38,509 nt of DNA from Candidatus Sungiibacteriota bacterium (GTDB lineage Bacteria; Patescibacteriota; Minisyncoccia; Sungbacterales; HO2-52-23), in NCBI GenBank assembly GCA_016181585.1, contig JACOYX010000018.1, positions 1 to 38,509 of the forward strand, read 5' to 3'. The notes beneath the pieces are model-generated. The model ran no database searches. It had not been told where the DNA came from and saw nothing but the letters and a program-made list of their open reading frames with translations. Of the stretch, positions 10,460 through 28,822 are shown one piece after another. Position 1 is the first letter of the stretch. The number at the start of each line of letters is the position of its first letter. The position numbers were made by a program, and so were the translations under genes.

Positions 10460-11674
10460 TTATTTCGCGATATAAAACTGCGGATGACAGCGGTCACACA
10501 CGGTTTTTGCTTTTATGAGATGTTTTTTCACTTCAGGGTCCATATCTACCCAGTTGGTATGAACCCGAACGCGGGGGCAGGAAGGTTCAGGGCATACCGC
10601 ATTAATGAGTTGTGCCGGTAGTTCGATCGGTCTCGAGAAATATCCCGATACCCAAACGGATTGCTGTTCCGCGAGGATTGTTCGTATGTCGAGCGTTGGC
10701 ACGAAAATCAGTTTTAGAAGCGCCATGCGCACAAAAAAACCATTGTCCGCTTGTTCATAGTGGATAAACCGCGAATCCATTAAATCAATTTTTTCCGGAT
10801 ATTCTTGATTTGCGGGGAGCGGATGCAGAAACCAGGAATCAGTTCTTGCGTATTTGCGAATACTCGCGCCGTACACTCTGATGTAGTGTTCGATTTGTTT
10901 TTTGCTTAACCTTTTTCCTTTTCGGAGGTTGTCCTGAATGCGTGTTATGTACCAATAATCCACCAAGGCGGCGATGTCTCGCGGGTTTATGATTTTTTCA
11001 ACAGAGATTTTATTGGTGTCTATTTCAGAAAAAACCCAATCAGGAACATTTTCTTCCTCTGGTCCCACGAGGAAAACTTTGCCGCCAAATTGCGAAAGCC
11101 CGATAAGATTCGAATGAATGGTGCGGCTATGTGACAGATCGCCGACCAGCGCCAGCGTAAGTTCTCCGTTCATGAATCGCAGTTTGTCCCGTCTCCAGAT
11201 GGTGTAAGGATCGACCAGAGCTTGTGTTGAATGTTGTCTACTGCCACTTCCGCCATCAATAACAACAGTTGCAAGTCCGTATTCCTCAGCCGCTTCTGCC
11301 ATTTTTTTTGCGGCATAGTCGTCTTTGTCATCGCGGATGATGATGCAATCACAGCGCGGGCCGTGTATGCGGAGCGTGCTTCGGTGGGTTTCCCCTTTGG
11401 CGGCAGATGAAAATTCAAGCGGGTTTGTTTTTACTTCTCCGCCCATTGTTTCTATCGCGTCTTCAAACGAGCCGATGGTGCGCGTGCTTGCGCCGGAGTA
11501 GAGAATTCTAAATCGAAACGCTTCGCCGTTTGCTTTTTTAAGAAGATACATGAGCGATAAGCGTTTTACAGGATCGTTGTATATTGCCCGCAACTCTTCT
11601 GCGGTTCGGAAAATTTCCAAAAAATCTAGAAAGCCGAAATCTTTGGCGCTGGTGATATGGCGAAGTTCTGCCAT
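10460..11674 (-). CDS. pyrB: Aspartate carbamoyltransferase (divergent) with C-terminal PyrI-like Zn-binding extension
   Basis: STRT, KGE, HSTQALVD, GDLSHSRTIHS, YITRIQ, LHPLP, QADNG..VRMALL; tail CPEPSC...CDRC. Confidence 0.88.
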   Translation of the reverse strand: MAELRHITSAKDFGFLDFLEIFRTAEELRAIYNDPVKRLSLMYLLKKANGEAFRFRILYSGASTRTIGSFEDAIETMGGEVKTNPLEFSSAAKGETHRSTLRIHGPRCDCIIIRDDKDDYAAKKMAEAAEEYGLATVVIDGGSGSRQHSTQALVDPYTIWRRDKLRFMNGELTLALVGDLSHSRTIHSNLIGLSQFGGKVFLVGPEEENVPDWVFSEIDTNKISVEKIINPRDIAALVDYWYITRIQDNLRKGKRLSKKQIEHYIRVYGASIRKYARTDSWFLHPLPANQEYPEKIDLMDSRFIHYEQADNGFFVRMALLKLIFVPTLDIRTILAEQQSVWVSGYFSRPIELPAQLINAVCPEPSCPRVRVHTNWVDMDPEVKKHLIKAKTVCDRCHPQFYIAK

Positions 11675-22437: not shown

Positions 22438-22537
22438 AGTACCCCCTCTTTTCCTTTGGTTCTGTTATATGGTAATTTACCATAAAGAACAAGCAGTATA
22501 CGAAGCTAAGCTTCGTGTGTTACAATGTTTCGTAGAT

Positions 22538-23578: not shown

Positions 23579-23636
23579 TTTTATATTCTCACCACCTAAT
23601 CGCGCGATCGCGCGATTAGGTGGTGAGAATATAAAA
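23579..23636. repeat. Perfect 58-bp palindrome
   Basis: ttttatattctcaccacctaatcgcgcga|tcgcgcgattaggtggtgagaatataaaa. Confidence 0.95.
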
Positions 23637-23678: not shown

Positions 23679-24036
23679 ACGGATACCATAGATAGTATCC
23701 TATCGCAACTCCGGCGAAAATGCCGAGAATCGCAAAAAGAACAGGGAGTGGGTTATGTATGGCTCCATGAAAGAGCCATACGATTACCTGCCACAGGTGG
23801 GGAATAAGCCATCGAAAGAAATTCCATACCTGCCCGATGACCCATGAAATCAGGCCGAGAGCGAGGTGGACAAAACCTTCGATGGTGCGGGCGGCGAGAC
23901 GGCCAGTCCACCGAAAATAGGGGGCGGGATTTCCGTGATTCCGATGAATGGAGATCACGAGTCCAAAACCCCAGAAGAAAACAACAAATCCTAGTACTGA
24001 CGCGACGAGCCGCCAGCAATAATCCATTTTTACCAT
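23677..24036 (-). CDS. Small membrane protein (last ORF of the array unit)
   Basis: 119 aa with several hydrophobic, Trp-rich helices; ATG overlaps the end of the upstream small ORF. Confidence 0.7.
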   Translation of the reverse strand: MVKMDYCWRLVASVLGFVVFFWGFGLVISIHRNHGNPAPYFRWTGRLAARTIEGFVHLALGLISWVIGQVWNFFRWLIPHLWQVIVWLFHGAIHNPLPVLFAILGIFAGVAIGYYLWYP

Positions 24037-24173
24037 CCTTGCCTTCTGTAAAACTCTTTCTGTTTTTTCCGGTTGTACCCCTTATTGCCCTTTGGTGATC
24101 CTTGCGGACCGCCAGTTTTTTGCGGCAAAGGAATTCTGCCGAGCTCAATTTTCCGTTTGGCTTCTTTCCTCAT
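24030..24173 (-). CDS. 47-aa basic peptide MRKEAKRKIELGRIPLPQKTGGPQGSPKGNKGYNRKKQKEFYRRQGW
   Basis: Manually translated (below the ORF-track cutoff); AAGGAG / AAAGG RBS; its end overlaps the next ATG. Confidence 0.6.
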   Translation of the reverse strand: MRKEAKRKIELGRIPLPQKTGGPQGSPKGNKGYNRKKQKEFYRRQGW

Positions 24174-24213
24174 CCTTTTCTCTTCTCCTTTTACTAGTTT
24201 TCAAAAATCTATC

Positions 24214-24275
24214 CTCCCATCAAAATTTCCGATTGTTCAGAATCTTTGATGGATGCTCAAGATTGTTTCTTGAGC
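24214..24275 (-). repeat. Double-hairpin array element, copy 6
   Basis: Minus strand GCTCAAGA-aacaa-TCTTGAGC ATCCATCAAA..TTTGATGGGAG, enclosed by AAAAATCT/AGATTTTT. Confidence 0.8.
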
Positions 24276-24313
24276 AGATTTTTTCATCTCCATTGTTTAA
24301 AAAAAGTCACAGA

Positions 24314-24580
24314 CTACTGCTTCCGGAAACCGAGAATGGCGGGAGTTTTTTGAACTGAAGATTTTACTGTCTCAAACTCCCGTTCCAGTAAACTCCACTC
24401 CTCGTCCGAAAGTTCGACGGTTGCGTCGATGTCGGGATATTTTTCTGGTGGAAACTTGTCGATGTTCCGTGCACCGATTTTGTTGAGTTTTTGGAAGAAC
24501 TCGAGTTGCTCTTCCATCCACTCGTGATAAGGCGGCAGTTCTTCCTCTACCATTTTCTTAAAATCACGAACGGTTCCCAT
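24314..24580 (-). CDS. Small acidic hypothetical protein
   Basis: 88 aa; AAGGAGG RBS. Confidence 0.75.
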   Translation of the reverse strand: MGTVRDFKKMVEEELPPYHEWMEEQLEFFQKLNKIGARNIDKFPPEKYPDIDATVELSDEEWSLLEREFETVKSSVQKTPAILGFRKQ

Positions 24581-24620
24581 GATTCCTCCTTTTTATTTTC
24601 CGTAAAGATCTTTAGGGTTT

Positions 24621-24679
24621 CCCCCTTTCAGAAATTTGAACTATTCAAATCTCTGAAAGGGAGGCGAGTCTTTTCTCGC
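24621..24679 (-). repeat. Double-hairpin array element, copy 5 (variant junction)
   Basis: GCGAG-aaaaga-CTCGC CTCCCTTTCAGAGATTTGAA-tag-TTCAAATTTCTGAAAGGGGG. Confidence 0.65.
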
Positions 24680-24984
24680 GCTCCGGTTTTTTGAAAGGGT
24701 TTGGGGCTCCCGGATAATATGCGTGCTCTCGCACTGCATCAGCGAAATGCTGTGGACATGTCTCCGTCGAGCGATGACAATAGCCCAATTATCCGAGGAG
24801 TTGTTCCCCTTACATTGCACCCTTGGGCAACGCACGCGGCTTGGCATTTCCGCGCGTGGGTTTTGGTGAGTGTCTTATATGACCCGGCTTTTATTATATG
24901 TTCAAGAGCTGCCAACTCTCTCCCATATACGCCCAAAACCGGGTGACACCACCTCTCGAGGGACCCATCGACCCCCGAACCCTT

Positions 24985-25197
24985 CTACTCGACAGGGCCG
25001 CCGCATTTGTGACCGCAATGATGACCAAATGCTTTTCCCTGCCGGCGGAGCAGCCGCTTCACTTTGCGTTCATCACGCTTGGTGAGTTTTAACGGCTTGC
25101 CCCTCGCAACCGCCATATCCTGGTAGCAGTCATAGCGGAACGACACGGAGATTTTTCTTCCCCGGTACCAAACCGATTCACCGCAATACCATGCCAT
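24985..25197 (-). CDS. Small basic Cys/His-containing hypothetical protein
   Basis: 70 aa; AAGGAGG RBS; upstream TGTTCTTTAA motif. Confidence 0.7.
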   Translation of the reverse strand: MAWYCGESVWYRGRKISVSFRYDCYQDMAVARGKPLKLTKRDERKVKRLLRRQGKAFGHHCGHKCGGPVE

Positions 25198-25447
25198 GGC
25201 GATCCTCCTTTTTCAAAATTTTAAATAAAATTAAAGAACAACGGACGAGAGTGTGGCGTGGCGGCGCCGTACTCCCTGGGGACACCGCGACTTGCGTCGC
25301 GTGTCCGCGGGCGATAATTTCATCATTTTTATATTTATCGCCTAGCCCCATTGATTTGCTACCGCCATAACTCCCCGAAGGGATTTCAAGTAATCCATGA
25401 TGAGCGCGGTTATTCAGGGGTTTGGTCCGCGCTACGATTGGGAACTT

Positions 25448-25527
25448 CTCCCATCAAAATCTTTATCTTTCCTTTTACAAAAGAAAAACTTTTATGGAAG
25501 CCCGAACTTTGATTTATTCGTTCGGGC
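25448..25527 (-). repeat. Double-hairpin array element, copy 4
   Basis: GCCCGAAC-N12-GTTCGGGC TTCCATAAAAG..TTTGATGGGAG; 22 bp at 25441-25462 identical to 26001-26022. Confidence 0.8.
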
Positions 25528-25639
25528 ACTTTTGCGCAATACGGTCTCGCTCATGCTTATAAGAATATGGCTAGTATTCTTTTATTTCACATGAATCCCC
25601 GTTCACGTGCCTTGCGTTGGCACGGGAGGTTTCGAAACT

Positions 25640-25936
25640 CTAGTATTCCGATTCCAGAGTTTCGGCAATCTTTCGATGCAATTCTCCACTTGCAATCATG
25701 CTTTTAGGCAGATTACAAAGGAATGCTCCGAGAGGATTGCATGACCCATCACATCTACCCCTTACAATGCTCGTAAGATGTTGTGCGTGGACCACGCGCT
25801 CTTCCTCCATATAAATGACGTCAAGCGAGTCTGCGTGGAAATCACCATTGCATCCGTGATTCCACTGGAGCTTTCCGTCATCTTCCGTCATACCATGTTC
25901 AGTGGTCTGACGATAAGTTCGGAATTTTCCTTGCAT
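25640..25936 (-). CDS. Small hypothetical protein (Cys/His-containing)
   Basis: 98 aa; AAGGGGGTG RBS. Confidence 0.7.
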   Translation of the reverse strand: MQGKFRTYRQTTEHGMTEDDGKLQWNHGCNGDFHADSLDVIYMEEERVVHAQHLTSIVRGRCDGSCNPLGAFLCNLPKSMIASGELHRKIAETLESEY

Positions 25937-26007
25937 GGTTCACCCCCTTTCTTTCTCCTGCGAGCCACCGCAGGATTGGTTTTGGTAAAAAAGAATTTTC
26001 GGAACTT

Positions 26008-26076
26008 CTCCCATCAAAATCTCTTAATGATTAAGAAACTTTGATGGGAGTCCGATGATCTTGTGAATCATCGGAC
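26008..26076 (-). repeat. Double-hairpin array element, copy 3
   Basis: GTCCGATGATT-cacaa-GATCATCGGAC TCCCATCAAAGTTTCTTAAT-c-ATTAAGAGATTTTGATGGGAG. Confidence 0.85.
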
Positions 26077-26090
26077 AAACTAGCAGTGTT

Positions 26091-26294
26091 TTACTCAGGG
26101 ATTTTGTTTGCCACCGCCGCGAGACGGTCGGCTTCCGCCCGGAGTATGTTCACTGCTTCTACCAACGCGACTTTGCAGCCACGCTGGTCGGGGTACACAT
26201 TCAAACCGCATCCTGCCTCCTGCGCTTTATGTAAGGCATTGAGCGTGTTACGTACCCCACTGAAAATTTCATGTACTAAACCTTCATTAACCAT
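26091..26294 (-). CDS. Small hypothetical protein (67 aa, MVNEGLVHEIF...)
   Basis: AAGGAGG RBS directly before ATG 26294. Confidence 0.7.
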   Translation of the reverse strand: MVNEGLVHEIFSGVRNTLNALHKAQEAGCGLNVYPDQRGCKVALVEAVNILRAEADRLAAVANKIPE

Positions 26295-26684
26295 CTTCTC
26301 CTCCTTTTGGTCCTCTTTTTGGTTGGCCAATGGTTTGTTTAAATTTTGTTTTGTATAAAAGAACTTTGGAATGGCCAGCGGAGCCGCAAAAAATACGCGG
26401 ACGCTGGCTATAAAATATGCGGCTAGGGCATCTCCGTTACTGGTCTCGCACAGGCTACCTCCTTGCCCGAGCTCCAGTTCCCACTAAAACCTTTGCGGCC
26501 GCTTACGCAAAGGGGTTTCCCAAGTATCCATCGGGGCAGCGATGGATCGCTCCCGTGGGAGTGCTTGGGATTCCGGCCTCAAAATGCCGGAAGGAGATGT
26601 TTCGCTTACCGGTTCTTACTGAAAGAACCGCTTGCGTCTCGAGGCCTCGTCCCCGAGAATAAGCAAAAACGTTGGGTTTCAGAT

Positions 26685-26774
26685 CTCCCATCGAAGCAAG
26701 AGAGCGTAACGAATAATTATATAAGGTTCGCTCTCGCGCTTCGATGGAAGCAGAAGGCGCTGGTCGCTTTCTGC
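26685..26774 (-). repeat. Double-hairpin array element, copy 2
   Basis: GCAGAAAGCG-accag-CGCCTTCTGC TTCCATCGAAGC..GAGAGCG..CGCTCTC..GCTTCGATGGGAG. Confidence 0.85.
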
Positions 26775-26787
26775 TGTTGCGGGGTTT

Positions 26788-26949
26788 TTACTTACTACGC
26801 GGGTCCTCTGCCTCCCGCGCCTCCAGCCAGCTTTCGCGGCTGGAGTGGACAACACCCCGATTGTCGGTGACATATTGATAATCGACGGGGCGGACCCCCT
26901 CAACGATCATCGCTAGCCGCTCCTCCAACGTAATTGTGGTGTTTTCCAT
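26788..26949 (-). CDS. Small hypothetical protein (53 aa, MENTTITLEERL...)
   Basis: AAGGAGG RBS before ATG 26949. Confidence 0.65.
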   Translation of the reverse strand: MENTTITLEERLAMIVEGVRPVDYQYVTDNRGVVHSSRESWLEAREAEDPRSK

Positions 26950-26993
26950 TTTCCTTCCTCCTTTTCTAAGAACATAGAGAGATTGTAAATTTT

Positions 26994-27115
26994 CTCCCAC
27001 CGAAGTAGCGACTGGTTGTTAGCCACTAGAAGTTAGTAATTTTTTAGTTTACTAGTGGCTAGGAACTAGTTGCTAGTCGCTATTTCGGTGGAAGGGGATA
27101 GAATTACCCATCCCT
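26994..27115 (-). repeat. Double-hairpin array element, copy 1 (promoter-proximal, longest stem)
   Basis: GGGAT..ATCCC CTTCCACCGAAATAGCGACT..TAGCCACTAG..CTAGTGGCTA..AGTCGCTACTTCGGTGGGAG. Confidence 0.8.
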
Positions 27116-27170
27116 CAATCCCCACCTCCTTCTTAAAATGTTTAAGTTTTTCCCAAACCGTTATGCCTAC

Positions 27171-27198
27171 ATTATACACAATCTATATAATTTGTCAA
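27171..27198 (-). promoter_or_regulatory. Consensus sigma70 promoter driving the small-ORF/hairpin unit
   Basis: Minus strand TTGACA-16 bp-TATAAT. Confidence 0.8.
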
Positions 27199-27439
27199 GT
27201 AGCGATGACATAATGAAGAAGTAATCCCTAAAAAATGGCTTATATAAAGCAAAAATTAGAGATAAATATTTTTATCTCAAGTAAAACATTTTATCTTTTT
27301 AAAACCGAAGATAATTAAAAATTAACTTACTCTTCACCAAAGGTGCATCGGATCTTTCCATTTTATAAGTAAGAAATAGTGTGAGAGGTATGGGCAAATA
27401 TCTAGACTGGCGCACTTCAGGCTTGAATTTTACATTTAC

Positions 27440-27468
27440 TTGACACCACATGTATTTATGTATATAAT
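27440..27468 (+). promoter_or_regulatory. Consensus sigma70 promoter (divergent)
   Basis: TTGACA-17 bp-TATAAT. Confidence 0.85.
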
Positions 27469-27473
27469 ATGGG

Positions 27474-27740
27474 TAGATGCCGCGCACTAAGGGCGGCATC
27501 TAACTGGTTCTTTCTGGAGGGTTCTTGAGTAAATGTCTTCTCTACTGGATTCCTGCGCATGGCAGGAATAACAGAAGAGGGTGCTCAAGGAATTGGTGAG
27601 CGAGGGCGTGTTCTCGACCACTTAAGTCCGACCGGACGGGTTTAGGACATGCTCAAAAAGTTTTTTCAAGCTCGCCATTTTTTTGTTCTCCTGTATGGCG
27701 AACAAAAAAAGAACCCCCTCCGATTCAGAGAGGAGGGATA
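27474..27740 (+). ncRNA. Putative structured non-coding RNA, family unknown
   Basis: Follows a perfect promoter; no ORF >=60 aa; multiple nested stems. Confidence 0.5.
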
Positions 27741-27881
27741 ATATAATGGGCGGCATGTAATTTTTTGGTCCCTTTTATATTTTTGGAAAATTTAAAAAAA
27801 AAGAAAAACGACGGAAAAAGAAAACAAAAACAAATTGGTATAATTAAAAGGGGACTACGCAAACGCGTACCCCCTTTATTT

Positions 27882-28634
27882 TTAATCAGTGGGTCTTATT
27901 AATTTCCAAAAAAGCATGAAAAGACTTCGAAAAGAATCCGCAACGCTCGAATGCTGGATAATAGTGCCTGATGGTTTACCTTTAAGGGCGGCAATTCCTA
28001 TCTTGTCATCATAGATGGTGAGATCGATATTAATGGGCAAATCCTGTGCTGACACATATTTTGATTCACGAAGCGATGCATTATCTTTTTCTTTCAAGAA
28101 GTCGCCGCGAGAAGAGGTATAGATAAGCGATGAATGGATGCCGTGTTTTACCCTTTCTGAAATATAAGTACTCGGATGTTCCGGAAAAATATCAAGCACG
28201 TTGTCCGCGGAGGCAATGGAATATATATGTTTTTCCTTTGTTGATAAAAAATCTTCCTGCATTCTCAAAAGCCCTTCTCTCCCTTCAAAAAAACGCACTT
28301 GCGGTTTTGAGTCTGAAAGGCGAAAGAGCGCCTCGAGTTCGGGGAGGAACTTGGCAAGTTCCTCTTTTTTGTGTTCGGCGGCTTTGCGTTCTTCTTCGAT
28401 GACGGACAGGAGCTGGTTCGGATCCTCCGCGATGAAAAATTGTTTTTTGCCTTTGGTCTGCGTGCTTGCGAGACCAAGTTTTTTCAAGCGTTCGATTTGG
28501 ACATAGGCGGTAGGGCGGTTGATTTCCGCTTTGGTGGAAATCTGGAGCATGGTCGAGGGACCGAGCTCGAGCATGGCAAGATATACCCGCGCCTCGTTTT
28601 CCGAGAGGCCCATTTGTCGGAGTTGATTAAGCAT
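27882..28634 (-). CDS. TrmB-family transcriptional regulator
   Basis: L..MGLSENEARVYLAMLELG wHTH; INRPTAY..IERL...GL; PQVRFFEGREGL; TIYDDKI. Confidence 0.92.
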   Translation of the reverse strand: MLNQLRQMGLSENEARVYLAMLELGPSTMLQISTKAEINRPTAYVQIERLKKLGLASTQTKGKKQFFIAEDPNQLLSVIEEERKAAEHKKEELAKFLPELEALFRLSDSKPQVRFFEGREGLLRMQEDFLSTKEKHIYSIASADNVLDIFPEHPSTYISERVKHGIHSSLIYTSSRGDFLKEKDNASLRESKYVSAQDLPINIDLTIYDDKIGIAALKGKPSGTIIQHSSVADSFRSLFMLFWKLIRPTD

Positions 28635-28822
28635 GTTGGATTTACTATAGTTTGAGTATACCATATAAAAATGGAAAGCGAAAATATAAAAACAAACTTT
28701 TAAACTTTAAACTTTAGGACTTACGCGTTTGAAAAGGAATACTTTTTTATATAGATTGCCGAGTCCAGATAGTAATCGTGACTCGCAATGACATCAAACG
28801 CGTAAGTCCTAACTATGTAGGC

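Follow-up and report, generated by a model that had tools for sequence, protein, structure and literature searches.

A candidate Shine-Dalgarno toggle at the core of a structured transcription unit beside a TrmB-family regulator gene in a Candidatus Sungiibacteriota genome

Contig JACOYX010000018.1 of a Candidatus Sungiibacteriota bacterium, an ultra-small organism from groundwater (assembly GCA_016181585.1), a stretch of 38,509 nucleotides analysed over its whole length and called the window below, contains a predicted plus-strand transcription unit that begins at a sigma-70-type promoter and runs towards a convergent gene for a TrmB-family regulator. Judged by comparison with related loci, the conserved core of this unit is a GGAGG/CCUCC/GGAGG toggle, rather than the multibranched fold emphasized in a preliminary description of the same DNA: one CCUCC-type anti-Shine-Dalgarno (anti-SD) element can pair either with an upstream GGAGG (SD1, in helix P1) or with a downstream GGAGG (SD2, in helix P5). 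Both duplexes are possible in all eight units compared, and the order SD1, anti-SD, SD2, AUGGG is retained in every one of them, across regulator identities of 49-60%. Our best reading is that of a small, patchy and lineage-restricted family in bacteria of the Candidate Phyla Radiation (CPR), and we consider it an even proposition that the unit is a structured transcript derived from a small open reading frame (ORF) and built on the SD toggle, the ORF having decayed in the window.

The window is contig C29 of genome G000 (867 kb, 31 contigs, 86% complete). The gene for the regulator served as the syntenic anchor, and orthologues of 49-60% identity led to the related loci, which are sequences from metagenomes or a genome collection: twelve metagenome loci came from a scan with the regulator protein, L051 and L053 among them, and L067, L068, L070, L071 and L072 came from a scan of the genome collection with an alignment of three regulators. 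The eight units counted throughout are those of the window and of these seven loci; L059 and L061, which have no sequence or CCUCC element in common with the window, and L073, which contains Ns and has a different layout, stand outside all such counts. L051 and L053 (regulator identity 57-59%) carry at the unit's position a promoter followed by hairpin-rich sequence and a terminator, read convergently to the regulator, and the other five loci (54-60%) have the same layout as the window. In all eight units, and in L059 and L061 as well, the arrangement is convergent and a hairpin at the stop of the regulator gene is shared; no related unit is without that hairpin.

Pairing segments and small reading frames of the unit

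The two alternative duplexes are of similar strength in the window, at -14.2 kcal/mol for P1 and -15.3 kcal/mol for P5. Over the eight units, the energies range from -10.7 to -17.2 kcal/mol for P1 and from -7.4 to -19.6 kcal/mol for P5, values which shuffled anti-SD windows seldom match. The 3' strand of P1 doubles as the anti-SD, so that formation of P5 excludes P1. In every unit SD2 is followed, after 4-8 nt, by AUGGG (GUGGG in L068), which opens an ORF of only 3-5 codons; the mini-ORF of the window reads AUG GGC GGC AUG UAA.

What the first SD precedes is clearest in L067, L070, L071 and L072 (the L067 group), where an ORF of 40, 40, 40 and 43 codons, respectively, starts 8 nt after SD1, passes through both the anti-SD and SD2, and ends at the stop of the mini-ORF, with which it is in frame. 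The spacing from a conserved UUGUC at the beginning of this ORF to AUGGG is 105, 111, 108 and 111 nt in these four loci, in each case a multiple of three. A profile of the four peptides retrieved six predicted proteins of 40-74 aa, of the same family, among 1.84 billion representatives; a word-based protein search with the 40-aa ORF gave no candidate, and the ESM Atlas gave no usable match. A coding-type pattern of substitution was sought in this ORF and not found. When L067 and L070 are compared over 38 codons, the first, second and third codon positions differ 10, 10 and 13 times, 2 codon changes are synonymous and 17 non-synonymous, and no codon periodicity is seen; the corresponding differences in the neighbouring regulator gene are 0.29/0.15/0.51. 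The peptide is thus barely constrained but its frame and length are kept, which points to the process of translation, or to the RNA itself, as being more important than the product.

The ORF on the SD1 side is far shorter in the window and its closest relatives: it has 24 codons in the window, starting at a UUG and stopping within the 5' arm of P3, 7 codons in L051, and is missing from L053. We read the 24-codon ORF as a probable truncated remnant of the 40-43-codon ORF of the relatives. No plus-strand ORF of at least 45 aa starts within 27440-27764, and the only one nearby, 27765-27902, runs through the terminator. The unit had been described as ORF-free, and this holds for long plus-strand ORFs but not for the 24-codon ORF or for the four codons behind GGAGGG. 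One further series of CCUCC, short loop, GGAGG and AUGGG is present in the genome, on contig C11 at position 22440 (+), where it precedes a 20-codon ORF.

The RNA as a whole is predicted to be strongly folded. The minimum-energy structure of 27472-27775 on the plus strand reaches -126.1 kcal/mol (z -6.3; 0 of 100 shuffles equally stable), and contains all the stems listed in the preliminary description: the 5' hairpin, the outer stem, and the three inner hairpins with their inner stems. The minus strand of the same segment folds at -98.0 kcal/mol (z -5.7), 28 kcal/mol less stable than the plus strand, which is therefore favoured, as had been claimed from its G-U pairs. All pairs in helices P0, P1, P3 and P5, which form in the window, L051 and L053, are standard ones, and G-U pairs, which would be A-C on the opposite strand, occur in P0, P1 and P3 among these three units.

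The helices differ in how they fare among relatives. P0 has counterparts at the same place in L051 and L053, of unrelated sequence and with 2 and 1 G-U pairs, respectively, and the L067 group has two 5' hairpins. The three-tier architecture of P2 (hairpin A of the preliminary description) is that of the interior, or start, domain in L067, L070, L071 and L072; it has shrunk to a 9-bp hairpin in L051 and is absent from L053. The base of P3 (hairpin B) is kept in window, L051 and L053 with 7/7, 7/7 and 8/8 standard pairs, one pair being U-G in the window and C-G in the other two, and another C-G in the window and L051 and A-U in L053; no helix of this type is found in the L067 group. At the place of P4 (hairpin C), L051 has a hairpin of unrelated sequence, and neither L053 nor the L067 group has any. 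Junctions also differ among the window, L051 and L053, of which the last lacks both P2 and P4. With hairpins A and C and the filling of B varying or vanishing in this way, the multibranched shape is, on this comparison, not the conserved part of the unit; the conservation that was looked for is borne out by a homologue in L051 and by six more loci of the same layout, and attaches to other elements than had been expected.

Between P0 and SD1 lies the heptamer GUUCUUU, which we take to be boxA-like. It is identical and identically placed in L051; L053 has only CUCUUU, within an extra hairpin, and the L067 group lacks the element. A brief look at the 16S leaders of relatives, the genome's own rRNA operon being unassembled, found a hairpin followed by GUUCUC in one of them.

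The unit's promoter matches the TTGACA-17-TATAAT consensus at all 12 positions, as the preliminary description had it, and is perfect or near-perfect, at the same position, in L051, L053, L067, L068, L070, L071 and L072. Perfect sites of the TTGACA/TATAAT type are 20-fold enriched in the 867-kb genome (14, with 0.67 expected from base composition), are nonetheless rare, and elsewhere lie ahead of genes or RNAs. Transcription probably ends at the hairpin and U-run common to the unit and the convergent regulator gene, which would give a transcript of about 410 nt. An A+U-rich hairpin around the mini-ORF, followed by UUUUU, is a possible weak first terminator that does not appear in the list from the terminator scan; if it terminates, the transcript would measure about 310 nt. 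The A-rich, unstructured tail between these two hairpins has a similar counterpart in L051 and none in L053. A stand-alone non-coding RNA of about 270 nt had been proposed. The independent promoter-to-terminator unit without a conserved long ORF stands, and the length is probably nearer 410 nt. There is no plus-strand gene downstream, and the gene designated trmB is convergent, both as described; it encodes a TrmB-family helix-turn-helix (HTH) regulator (PF01978), not the tRNA methyltransferase TrmB.

Weighing the readings

Taken together, these observations can be arranged as follows. A transcription unit of some 310-410 nt, convergent to the regulator gene, would carry an anti-SD CCUCC that pairs alternately with SD1, in P1, or with SD2, in P5, SD2 preceding the AUGGG mini-ORF. 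In what we take to be the fuller form, that of the four loci with the longer ORF, SD1 would drive translation of 40-43 codons through the anti-SD and SD2 to the stop of the mini-ORF, and the toggle may thereby gate ribosome loading. On the simplest history of the lineage of the window, L051 and L053, insertions that gave P3 and P4 would have separated the start domain from the anti-SD, breaking the ORF and leaving 24 codons of it in the window; one of the inserted hairpins, P3, would later have been invaded by a dispersed repeat. The copy in the window is then best seen as a decayed derivative: a stable, strongly transcribed and largely non-coding RNA that would still retain the toggle and the mini-ORF.

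Several results weigh against this reading. Close homologues are few, being confined to the window, L051 and L053. Even among these, the only blastn match to the window unit is L051 (62.5% identity over 184 nt, E 3e-9 in a small database), and L053 matches neither. L067, L070, L071 and L072 match one another by blastn, but no match crosses between this group and that of the window; a covariance model, R1, built from these four units finds only its own four sequences and misses the window, L051, L053 and L068 at E up to 10. R1 found nothing in 151 sampled genomes of the class either, a sample without a positive control genome, in which a blank shows little. The link between the two groups is thus drawn solely from synteny and motif order, and is unproven. 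A DNA search with the unit in 60 relatives returned no full-length match, only a 45-nt repeat and A-rich or terminator pieces. Protein genes occupy the unit's place in the GTDB relative that has the closest regulator orthologue in the family (47% identity), and likewise in six of the twelve metagenome loci; of the remaining ones, L059 and L061 have a different structured stretch there, and L060 and L062 have too little downstream sequence to judge. P1 and P5 are nearly invariant GGAGG/CCUCC pairings and hence show little covariation, and P5 can be read otherwise, its minus strand scoring as terminator-like in the window. Only in 6 of the 8 units is the plus strand the more stable one, the strands being equal in L071 and the minus strand more stable in L072. 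In 7 of the 8 units an open frame of 44-77 codons lies ahead of the mini-ORF stop, but 33 to 668 of 2000 shuffles per unit match the observed opening, which is a weak signal. The toggle is followed in the transcript by no gene that it could control, only by the four-codon ORF ahead of the terminator. Lastly, the sequencing runs that hold the strain are four DNA runs from one study, with no RNA run listed; all four represent an identical strain with zero differences in the unit, and so add no variation.

The unit might alternatively be a stand-alone structured RNA acting in trans, its hairpins serving as a protein scaffold or in RNA targeting and its GGAGG and CCUCC segments being structural or mimicking a ribosome-binding site. 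We regard this as unlikely, though by no means negligible. It would accommodate the perfect promoter, the hairpin at the 5' terminus and the unit's own terminator, the fact that among the window, L051 and L053 the mini-ORF is the only ORF conserved, the retention of the P3 base with one compensatory change, and the absence of a match to any Rfam family; but conservation is missing from the junctions and from two of the three inner hairpins, an ORF of 40-43 codons runs through these very elements in units of the same layout, and neither complementarity to the neighbouring hairpin units nor a CsrA gene was found. At the other extreme, the stretch could be a functionless spacer in which palindromic insertions have accumulated between a promoter and a terminator, the conserved blocks being pieces of promoters and terminators that serve the neighbouring genes. 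One hairpin is indeed filled by a dispersed repeat, P5 is terminator-like on the minus strand, and part of a long hairpin nearby, at 26999-27089, is found again in other contigs from the sequencing runs. We nevertheless give this idea little credence: each of the other hairpins is present only once in the genome, 8 of 8 units keep the order of SD1, anti-SD, SD2 and AUGGG at 49-60% regulator identity, and perfect promoters are rare and elsewhere stand ahead of genes or RNAs.

Any effect of the unit on the regulator gene, or in trans, is likewise a matter of conjecture. A cis-antisense or transcription-interference device, in which a very strong promoter would fire at the 3' end of the regulator gene and the toggle or the mini-ORF would set the passage of polymerases through the shared terminator, fits the strict retention of the convergent layout with its shared hairpin in the eight units, L059 and L061, and a conserved inverted repeat over the divergent promoter offers a candidate operator; against it, a hairpin and U-run separate the units in every locus and the mechanism is wholly conjectural, and we hold it improbable. 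Equally improbable, in our estimate, is a broader scheme that treats the whole locus as a CPR-specific, RNA-centred regulatory module with the toggle as a sensor of ribosome availability. Its parts would be the TrmB-family regulator, the two back-to-back perfect promoters with their shared operator-like palindrome, the toggle RNA, and a small-ORF operon, punctuated by hairpins, with the RNA at 26428-26596 described below; a ribosome on SD1, SD2 or the mini-ORF would set the fold and stability of the RNA and the amount of convergent transcription that arrives at the regulator gene. If true, it would couple translation capacity to the output of the regulator in organisms that possess very few regulators of the classical kind. 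A leader that senses a ligand, such as a riboswitch, with the multibranch as aptamer and the anti-SD/SD2 hairpin as expression platform, is very unlikely: the 3' strand of P1 is the anti-SD, the classical layout of a translational switch, but the window, L051 and L053 share no conserved junction nucleotides, whole hairpins come and go, no regulated gene lies downstream, and none of the riboswitches in Rfam is matched, even with E values up to 10 allowed. Hardly credible is the partnership suggested in the preliminary description, that of an RNA resembling a trans-activating CRISPR RNA (tracrRNA), or a scaffold, with a neighbouring guide array. All that speaks for it is nearness to four hairpins with shared arms (at 24214, 25448, 26008 and 26685); no CRISPR-like tandem array exists here, duplex energies with the four hairpin units fall within the shuffled range, and no Cas- or Tas-like match was found among the scanned ORFs.

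The results behind this last judgement are as follows. The seven small arrays that Tandem Repeats Finder reported in the window all lie away from the unit and do not resemble a CRISPR array, and a scan for direct repeats reported none. What had been called an array is probably the set of four dispersed hairpins with CCAUCRAA arms, which lie 560-1234 nt apart, each behind a small ORF with its own ribosome-binding site. Pairing of the unit with these hairpins, computed as RNA-RNA duplexes, was equalled or bettered by 3, 35, 38 and 29 of 40 shuffles, so that no complementarity rises above the shuffled background. The same arms recur in a hairpin of the related locus L071. The small ORFs beside the hairpins have no Pfam, PHROGs or NCBIfam match, and scans of 33 window ORFs with Pfam, 9 with PHROGs and 10 with NCBIfam yielded no Cas- or Tas-like protein; the sole hint of Cas is a sub-threshold match of the regulator to a Csa3-type HTH (17.1 bits, cut-off 60.2).

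Known RNA families were considered as well, and Rfam, one of the checks that had been proposed, returned no family at the curated thresholds in the window, and nothing relevant there at E up to 10 or in the related loci. The 6S RNA model (RF00013) matches neither the window (E up to 10) nor the genome (E up to 1), and the fold is multibranched rather than a rod with a central bubble. The genome's RNase P RNA (C3:258-805) and transfer-messenger RNA (C18:3710-4061) lie elsewhere. Signal recognition particle (SRP) RNA (RF00169, RF01854) has no match in the window or the genome; RF00169 matches none of 21 genomes of the order, some of them reported as 100% complete, and does match the control genomes, so the model may fail here, and SRP RNA in this lineage is either very divergent or missed by the first filter of the search. 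The idea of a CsrA sponge was dropped, no CsrA gene having been found in the 86%-complete genome.

Repeats, promoters and neighbouring RNAs at the locus

Table 1. Features of the unit and its surroundings (window coordinates unless a contig is named; related loci by their handles)
Feature	Position	Strand	Basis or remark
Hairpins with CCAUCRAA/UUYGAUGG arms	24214-24252, 25448-25470, 26008-26050, 26685-26750		each follows a small minus-strand ORF
Divergent promoter of small-ORF operon, TTGACA-16-TATAAT	27171..27198	-	perfect match
Inverted repeat TGTCAAG/YTGACA	27180-27215		overlaps -35 of minus-strand promoter; window and related loci
Sigma-70-type promoter of the unit, TTGACA-17-TATAAT	27440..27468	+	12/12 consensus positions
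P0, 10-bp 5' hairpin	27474..27502	+	10/10 standard pairs
boxA-like GUUCUUU	27507..27513	+	directly before SD1
SD1, 5' strand of outer helix P1, GGAGGGUUCU	27516..27525	+	10/10 pairs
P2, three-tier nested hairpin	27523..27590	+	fold; 5' strand holds UUG start
24-codon UUG ORF	27525..27599	+	stop within 5' arm of P3
P3, base GGUGAGC/GCUCGCC	27595..27676	+	base kept in L051 and L053
Diverged copy of ~45-nt palindromic repeat, core CCGGACGGGTTTAGGA	27611..27657	+	fills P3
P4, U-run/A-run stem	27678..27710	+	fold
P1 3' strand, ending in anti-SD CCUCC (27717-27721)	27710..27721	+	
P5, anti-SD paired with SD2 GGAGGG (27732-27737)	27716..27737	+	6/6 pairs; excludes P1
A+U-rich hairpin around mini-ORF, then UUUUU	27741..27786	+	fold; candidate weak first terminator
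Mini-ORF, 4 codons	27746..27760	+	8 nt after SD2
A-rich unstructured tail	27787..27848	+	sequence and fold
Hairpin with U-runs on both strands	27851..27886	both	fold; common to unit and convergent regulator gene
TrmB-family HTH regulator gene	27882..28664	-	Pfam PF01978, E 2.6e-14
Further copies of the ~45-nt repeat	G000 C12:~11231-11275, C13:~12281, C18:~19834, C21:~25183; G060 (L041 1480-1720)		

The genes flanking the unit are ordinary housekeeping genes, as family scans of the window ORFs showed, except within the 3.8 kb from 24036 to 27882, where no ORF exceeds 135 aa. The filling of P3 is a dispersed palindromic repeat of the MITE (miniature inverted-repeat transposable element) or REP kind, with multiple copies both within and across genomes. 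Five copies of the 45-nt repeat are present in the genome, that of the window and four more; each is a small palindrome lying within other inverted repeats, some copies stand in tandem, and this piece of hairpin B was the recurring match when the genome and 60 relatives were searched with DNA. Of the 62 genomes of the order, 9 contain the invariant 16-nt core (at most one mismatch) and 2 contain a reversed control pattern. The repeat has no Rfam match, and the other hairpins and the rest of the unit are single-copy in the genome. The copies on C13 and C21 have about 45 additional bases in common on one side, and G060 holds tandem and multiple copies. The copy on C12 lies 12 nt before a start codon and right after another gene, whose C-terminal translation we take, by eye only, to be sigma-factor-like.

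Two more palindromes stand nearby. The 90-nt imperfect palindrome at 26999-27089 is probably another dispersed repeat; its part 27048-27082 recurs in other contigs of the sequencing runs, from other organisms or places. At 23579-23636, between two genes, there is a perfect palindrome of 29+29 nt with no spacer, followed by a terminator-like hairpin that scores weakly as a look-alike of a Phe leader (31.6 bits, cut-off 55).

The divergent orientation noted in the preliminary description was confirmed by a second perfect promoter, on the minus strand. This promoter is kept wherever it can be read, namely in the window, L051, L053, L068, L070, L071, L072, L059, L061 and L073; L067 has none at the corresponding position. 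In all the loci where it was read, its -35 element is overlapped by an inverted repeat of TGTCAAG, 5-6 nt and YTGACA, a candidate operator, perhaps for the TrmB-family regulator. The block of promoter and leader is 78% identical between the window and L051. Within the divergent leader, at 27070-27170 (-), is a conserved hairpin in which AAGGAGGUGGGGAU pairs with AUCCCCUUCCACC, a second SD-like/anti-SD-like pairing at the locus.

The divergent transcript carries a second candidate for a structured RNA, at 26428-26596 (-), some 900 bases from the unit and accompanied by a hairpin at 26677-26758 (-). Between the window and L051 the core of this RNA is 90% identical (150 of 166 aligned bases), as against 46% for the ORF between core and promoter, an indel breaks every reading frame, and its fold is a four-way junction (z -5.9). 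No Rfam family matches it, a DNA search of 62 genomes of the order did not find it in the other 61, and exact 20-nt patterns gave 0 matches in both genome_contigs and viral_contigs. On the evidence of these alignments it is far better conserved than the unit, and it may repay study more than the unit itself.

At L059 (1221-1634, -) and L061 (5269-5730, -), where the regulator is 41% and 37% identical, respectively, a different structured stretch runs from promoter to terminator at the unit's position, each with two 3-codon ORFs behind strong SDs; these two stretches are homologous to one another (E 2e-13) and not detectably to that of the window.

Comparison with known systems

Our literature searches on CPR RNAs and on anti-Shine-Dalgarno small ORFs found no description of such a unit. 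CPR bacteria have tiny genomes, and to our knowledge almost nothing has been learned of their regulatory RNAs; the interest of the unit lies in being an ORF-poor transcript with a perfect promoter that can be traced over several CPR lineages through the synteny of a regulator gene.

As a non-coding CPR transcript near repeated hairpins, the unit resembles tracrRNA/CRISPR loci and the TIGR arrays of CPR bacteria (TIGR-Tas, PMC12045711); it differs in having no CRISPR-like array, no anti-repeat complementarity and no nuclease gene that we could find. With raiA, OLE, ROOL and GOLLD RNAs it has in common that it is bounded by promoter and terminator, rich in hairpins and restricted in lineage, and none of these was matched by Rfam; those RNAs have conserved junctions and abundant covariation, whereas the unit keeps only the SD/anti-SD blocks and the base of one helix. 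REP, ERIC, Correia and RPE-like elements are small palindromic dispersed repeats, and the 45-nt filling of P3 is like them in being short, palindromic, multi-copy, intergenic and nested in inverted repeats, although the remainder of the unit, being single-copy, is not. The case calls for care when motifs are sought in these genomes, since dispersed palindromic repeats and inserted hairpins can make a small-ORF transcript resemble an ornate non-coding RNA.

SgrS/SgrT, RNAIII/hld and SR1/SR1P are dual-function small RNAs that also encode a peptide. The unit is similar to them in its own promoter and terminator, its strong structure and the small ORF inside it; it differs in that the search for complementarity to a target was negative, the lineage of the window does not conserve the peptide, and no partner of the Hfq or CsrA type is evident (CsrA was searched for and not found). 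Leaders of the ermC type work by translational attenuation with alternative pairing of SD segments. No resistance gene or other gene follows the unit, unlike such leaders; its SD2 drives only a 3-5-codon ORF, in frame with the first, and in the window the leader ORF is broken. As in an ermC-type leader, however, there is a short ORF with its own SD, one segment has two partners, so that an SD is hidden or exposed, and the peptide is weakly constrained with its frame kept. If the toggle does sense ribosome loading, the unit would be a very economical regulatory device; if it does not, it would be an ordinary small gene in decay.

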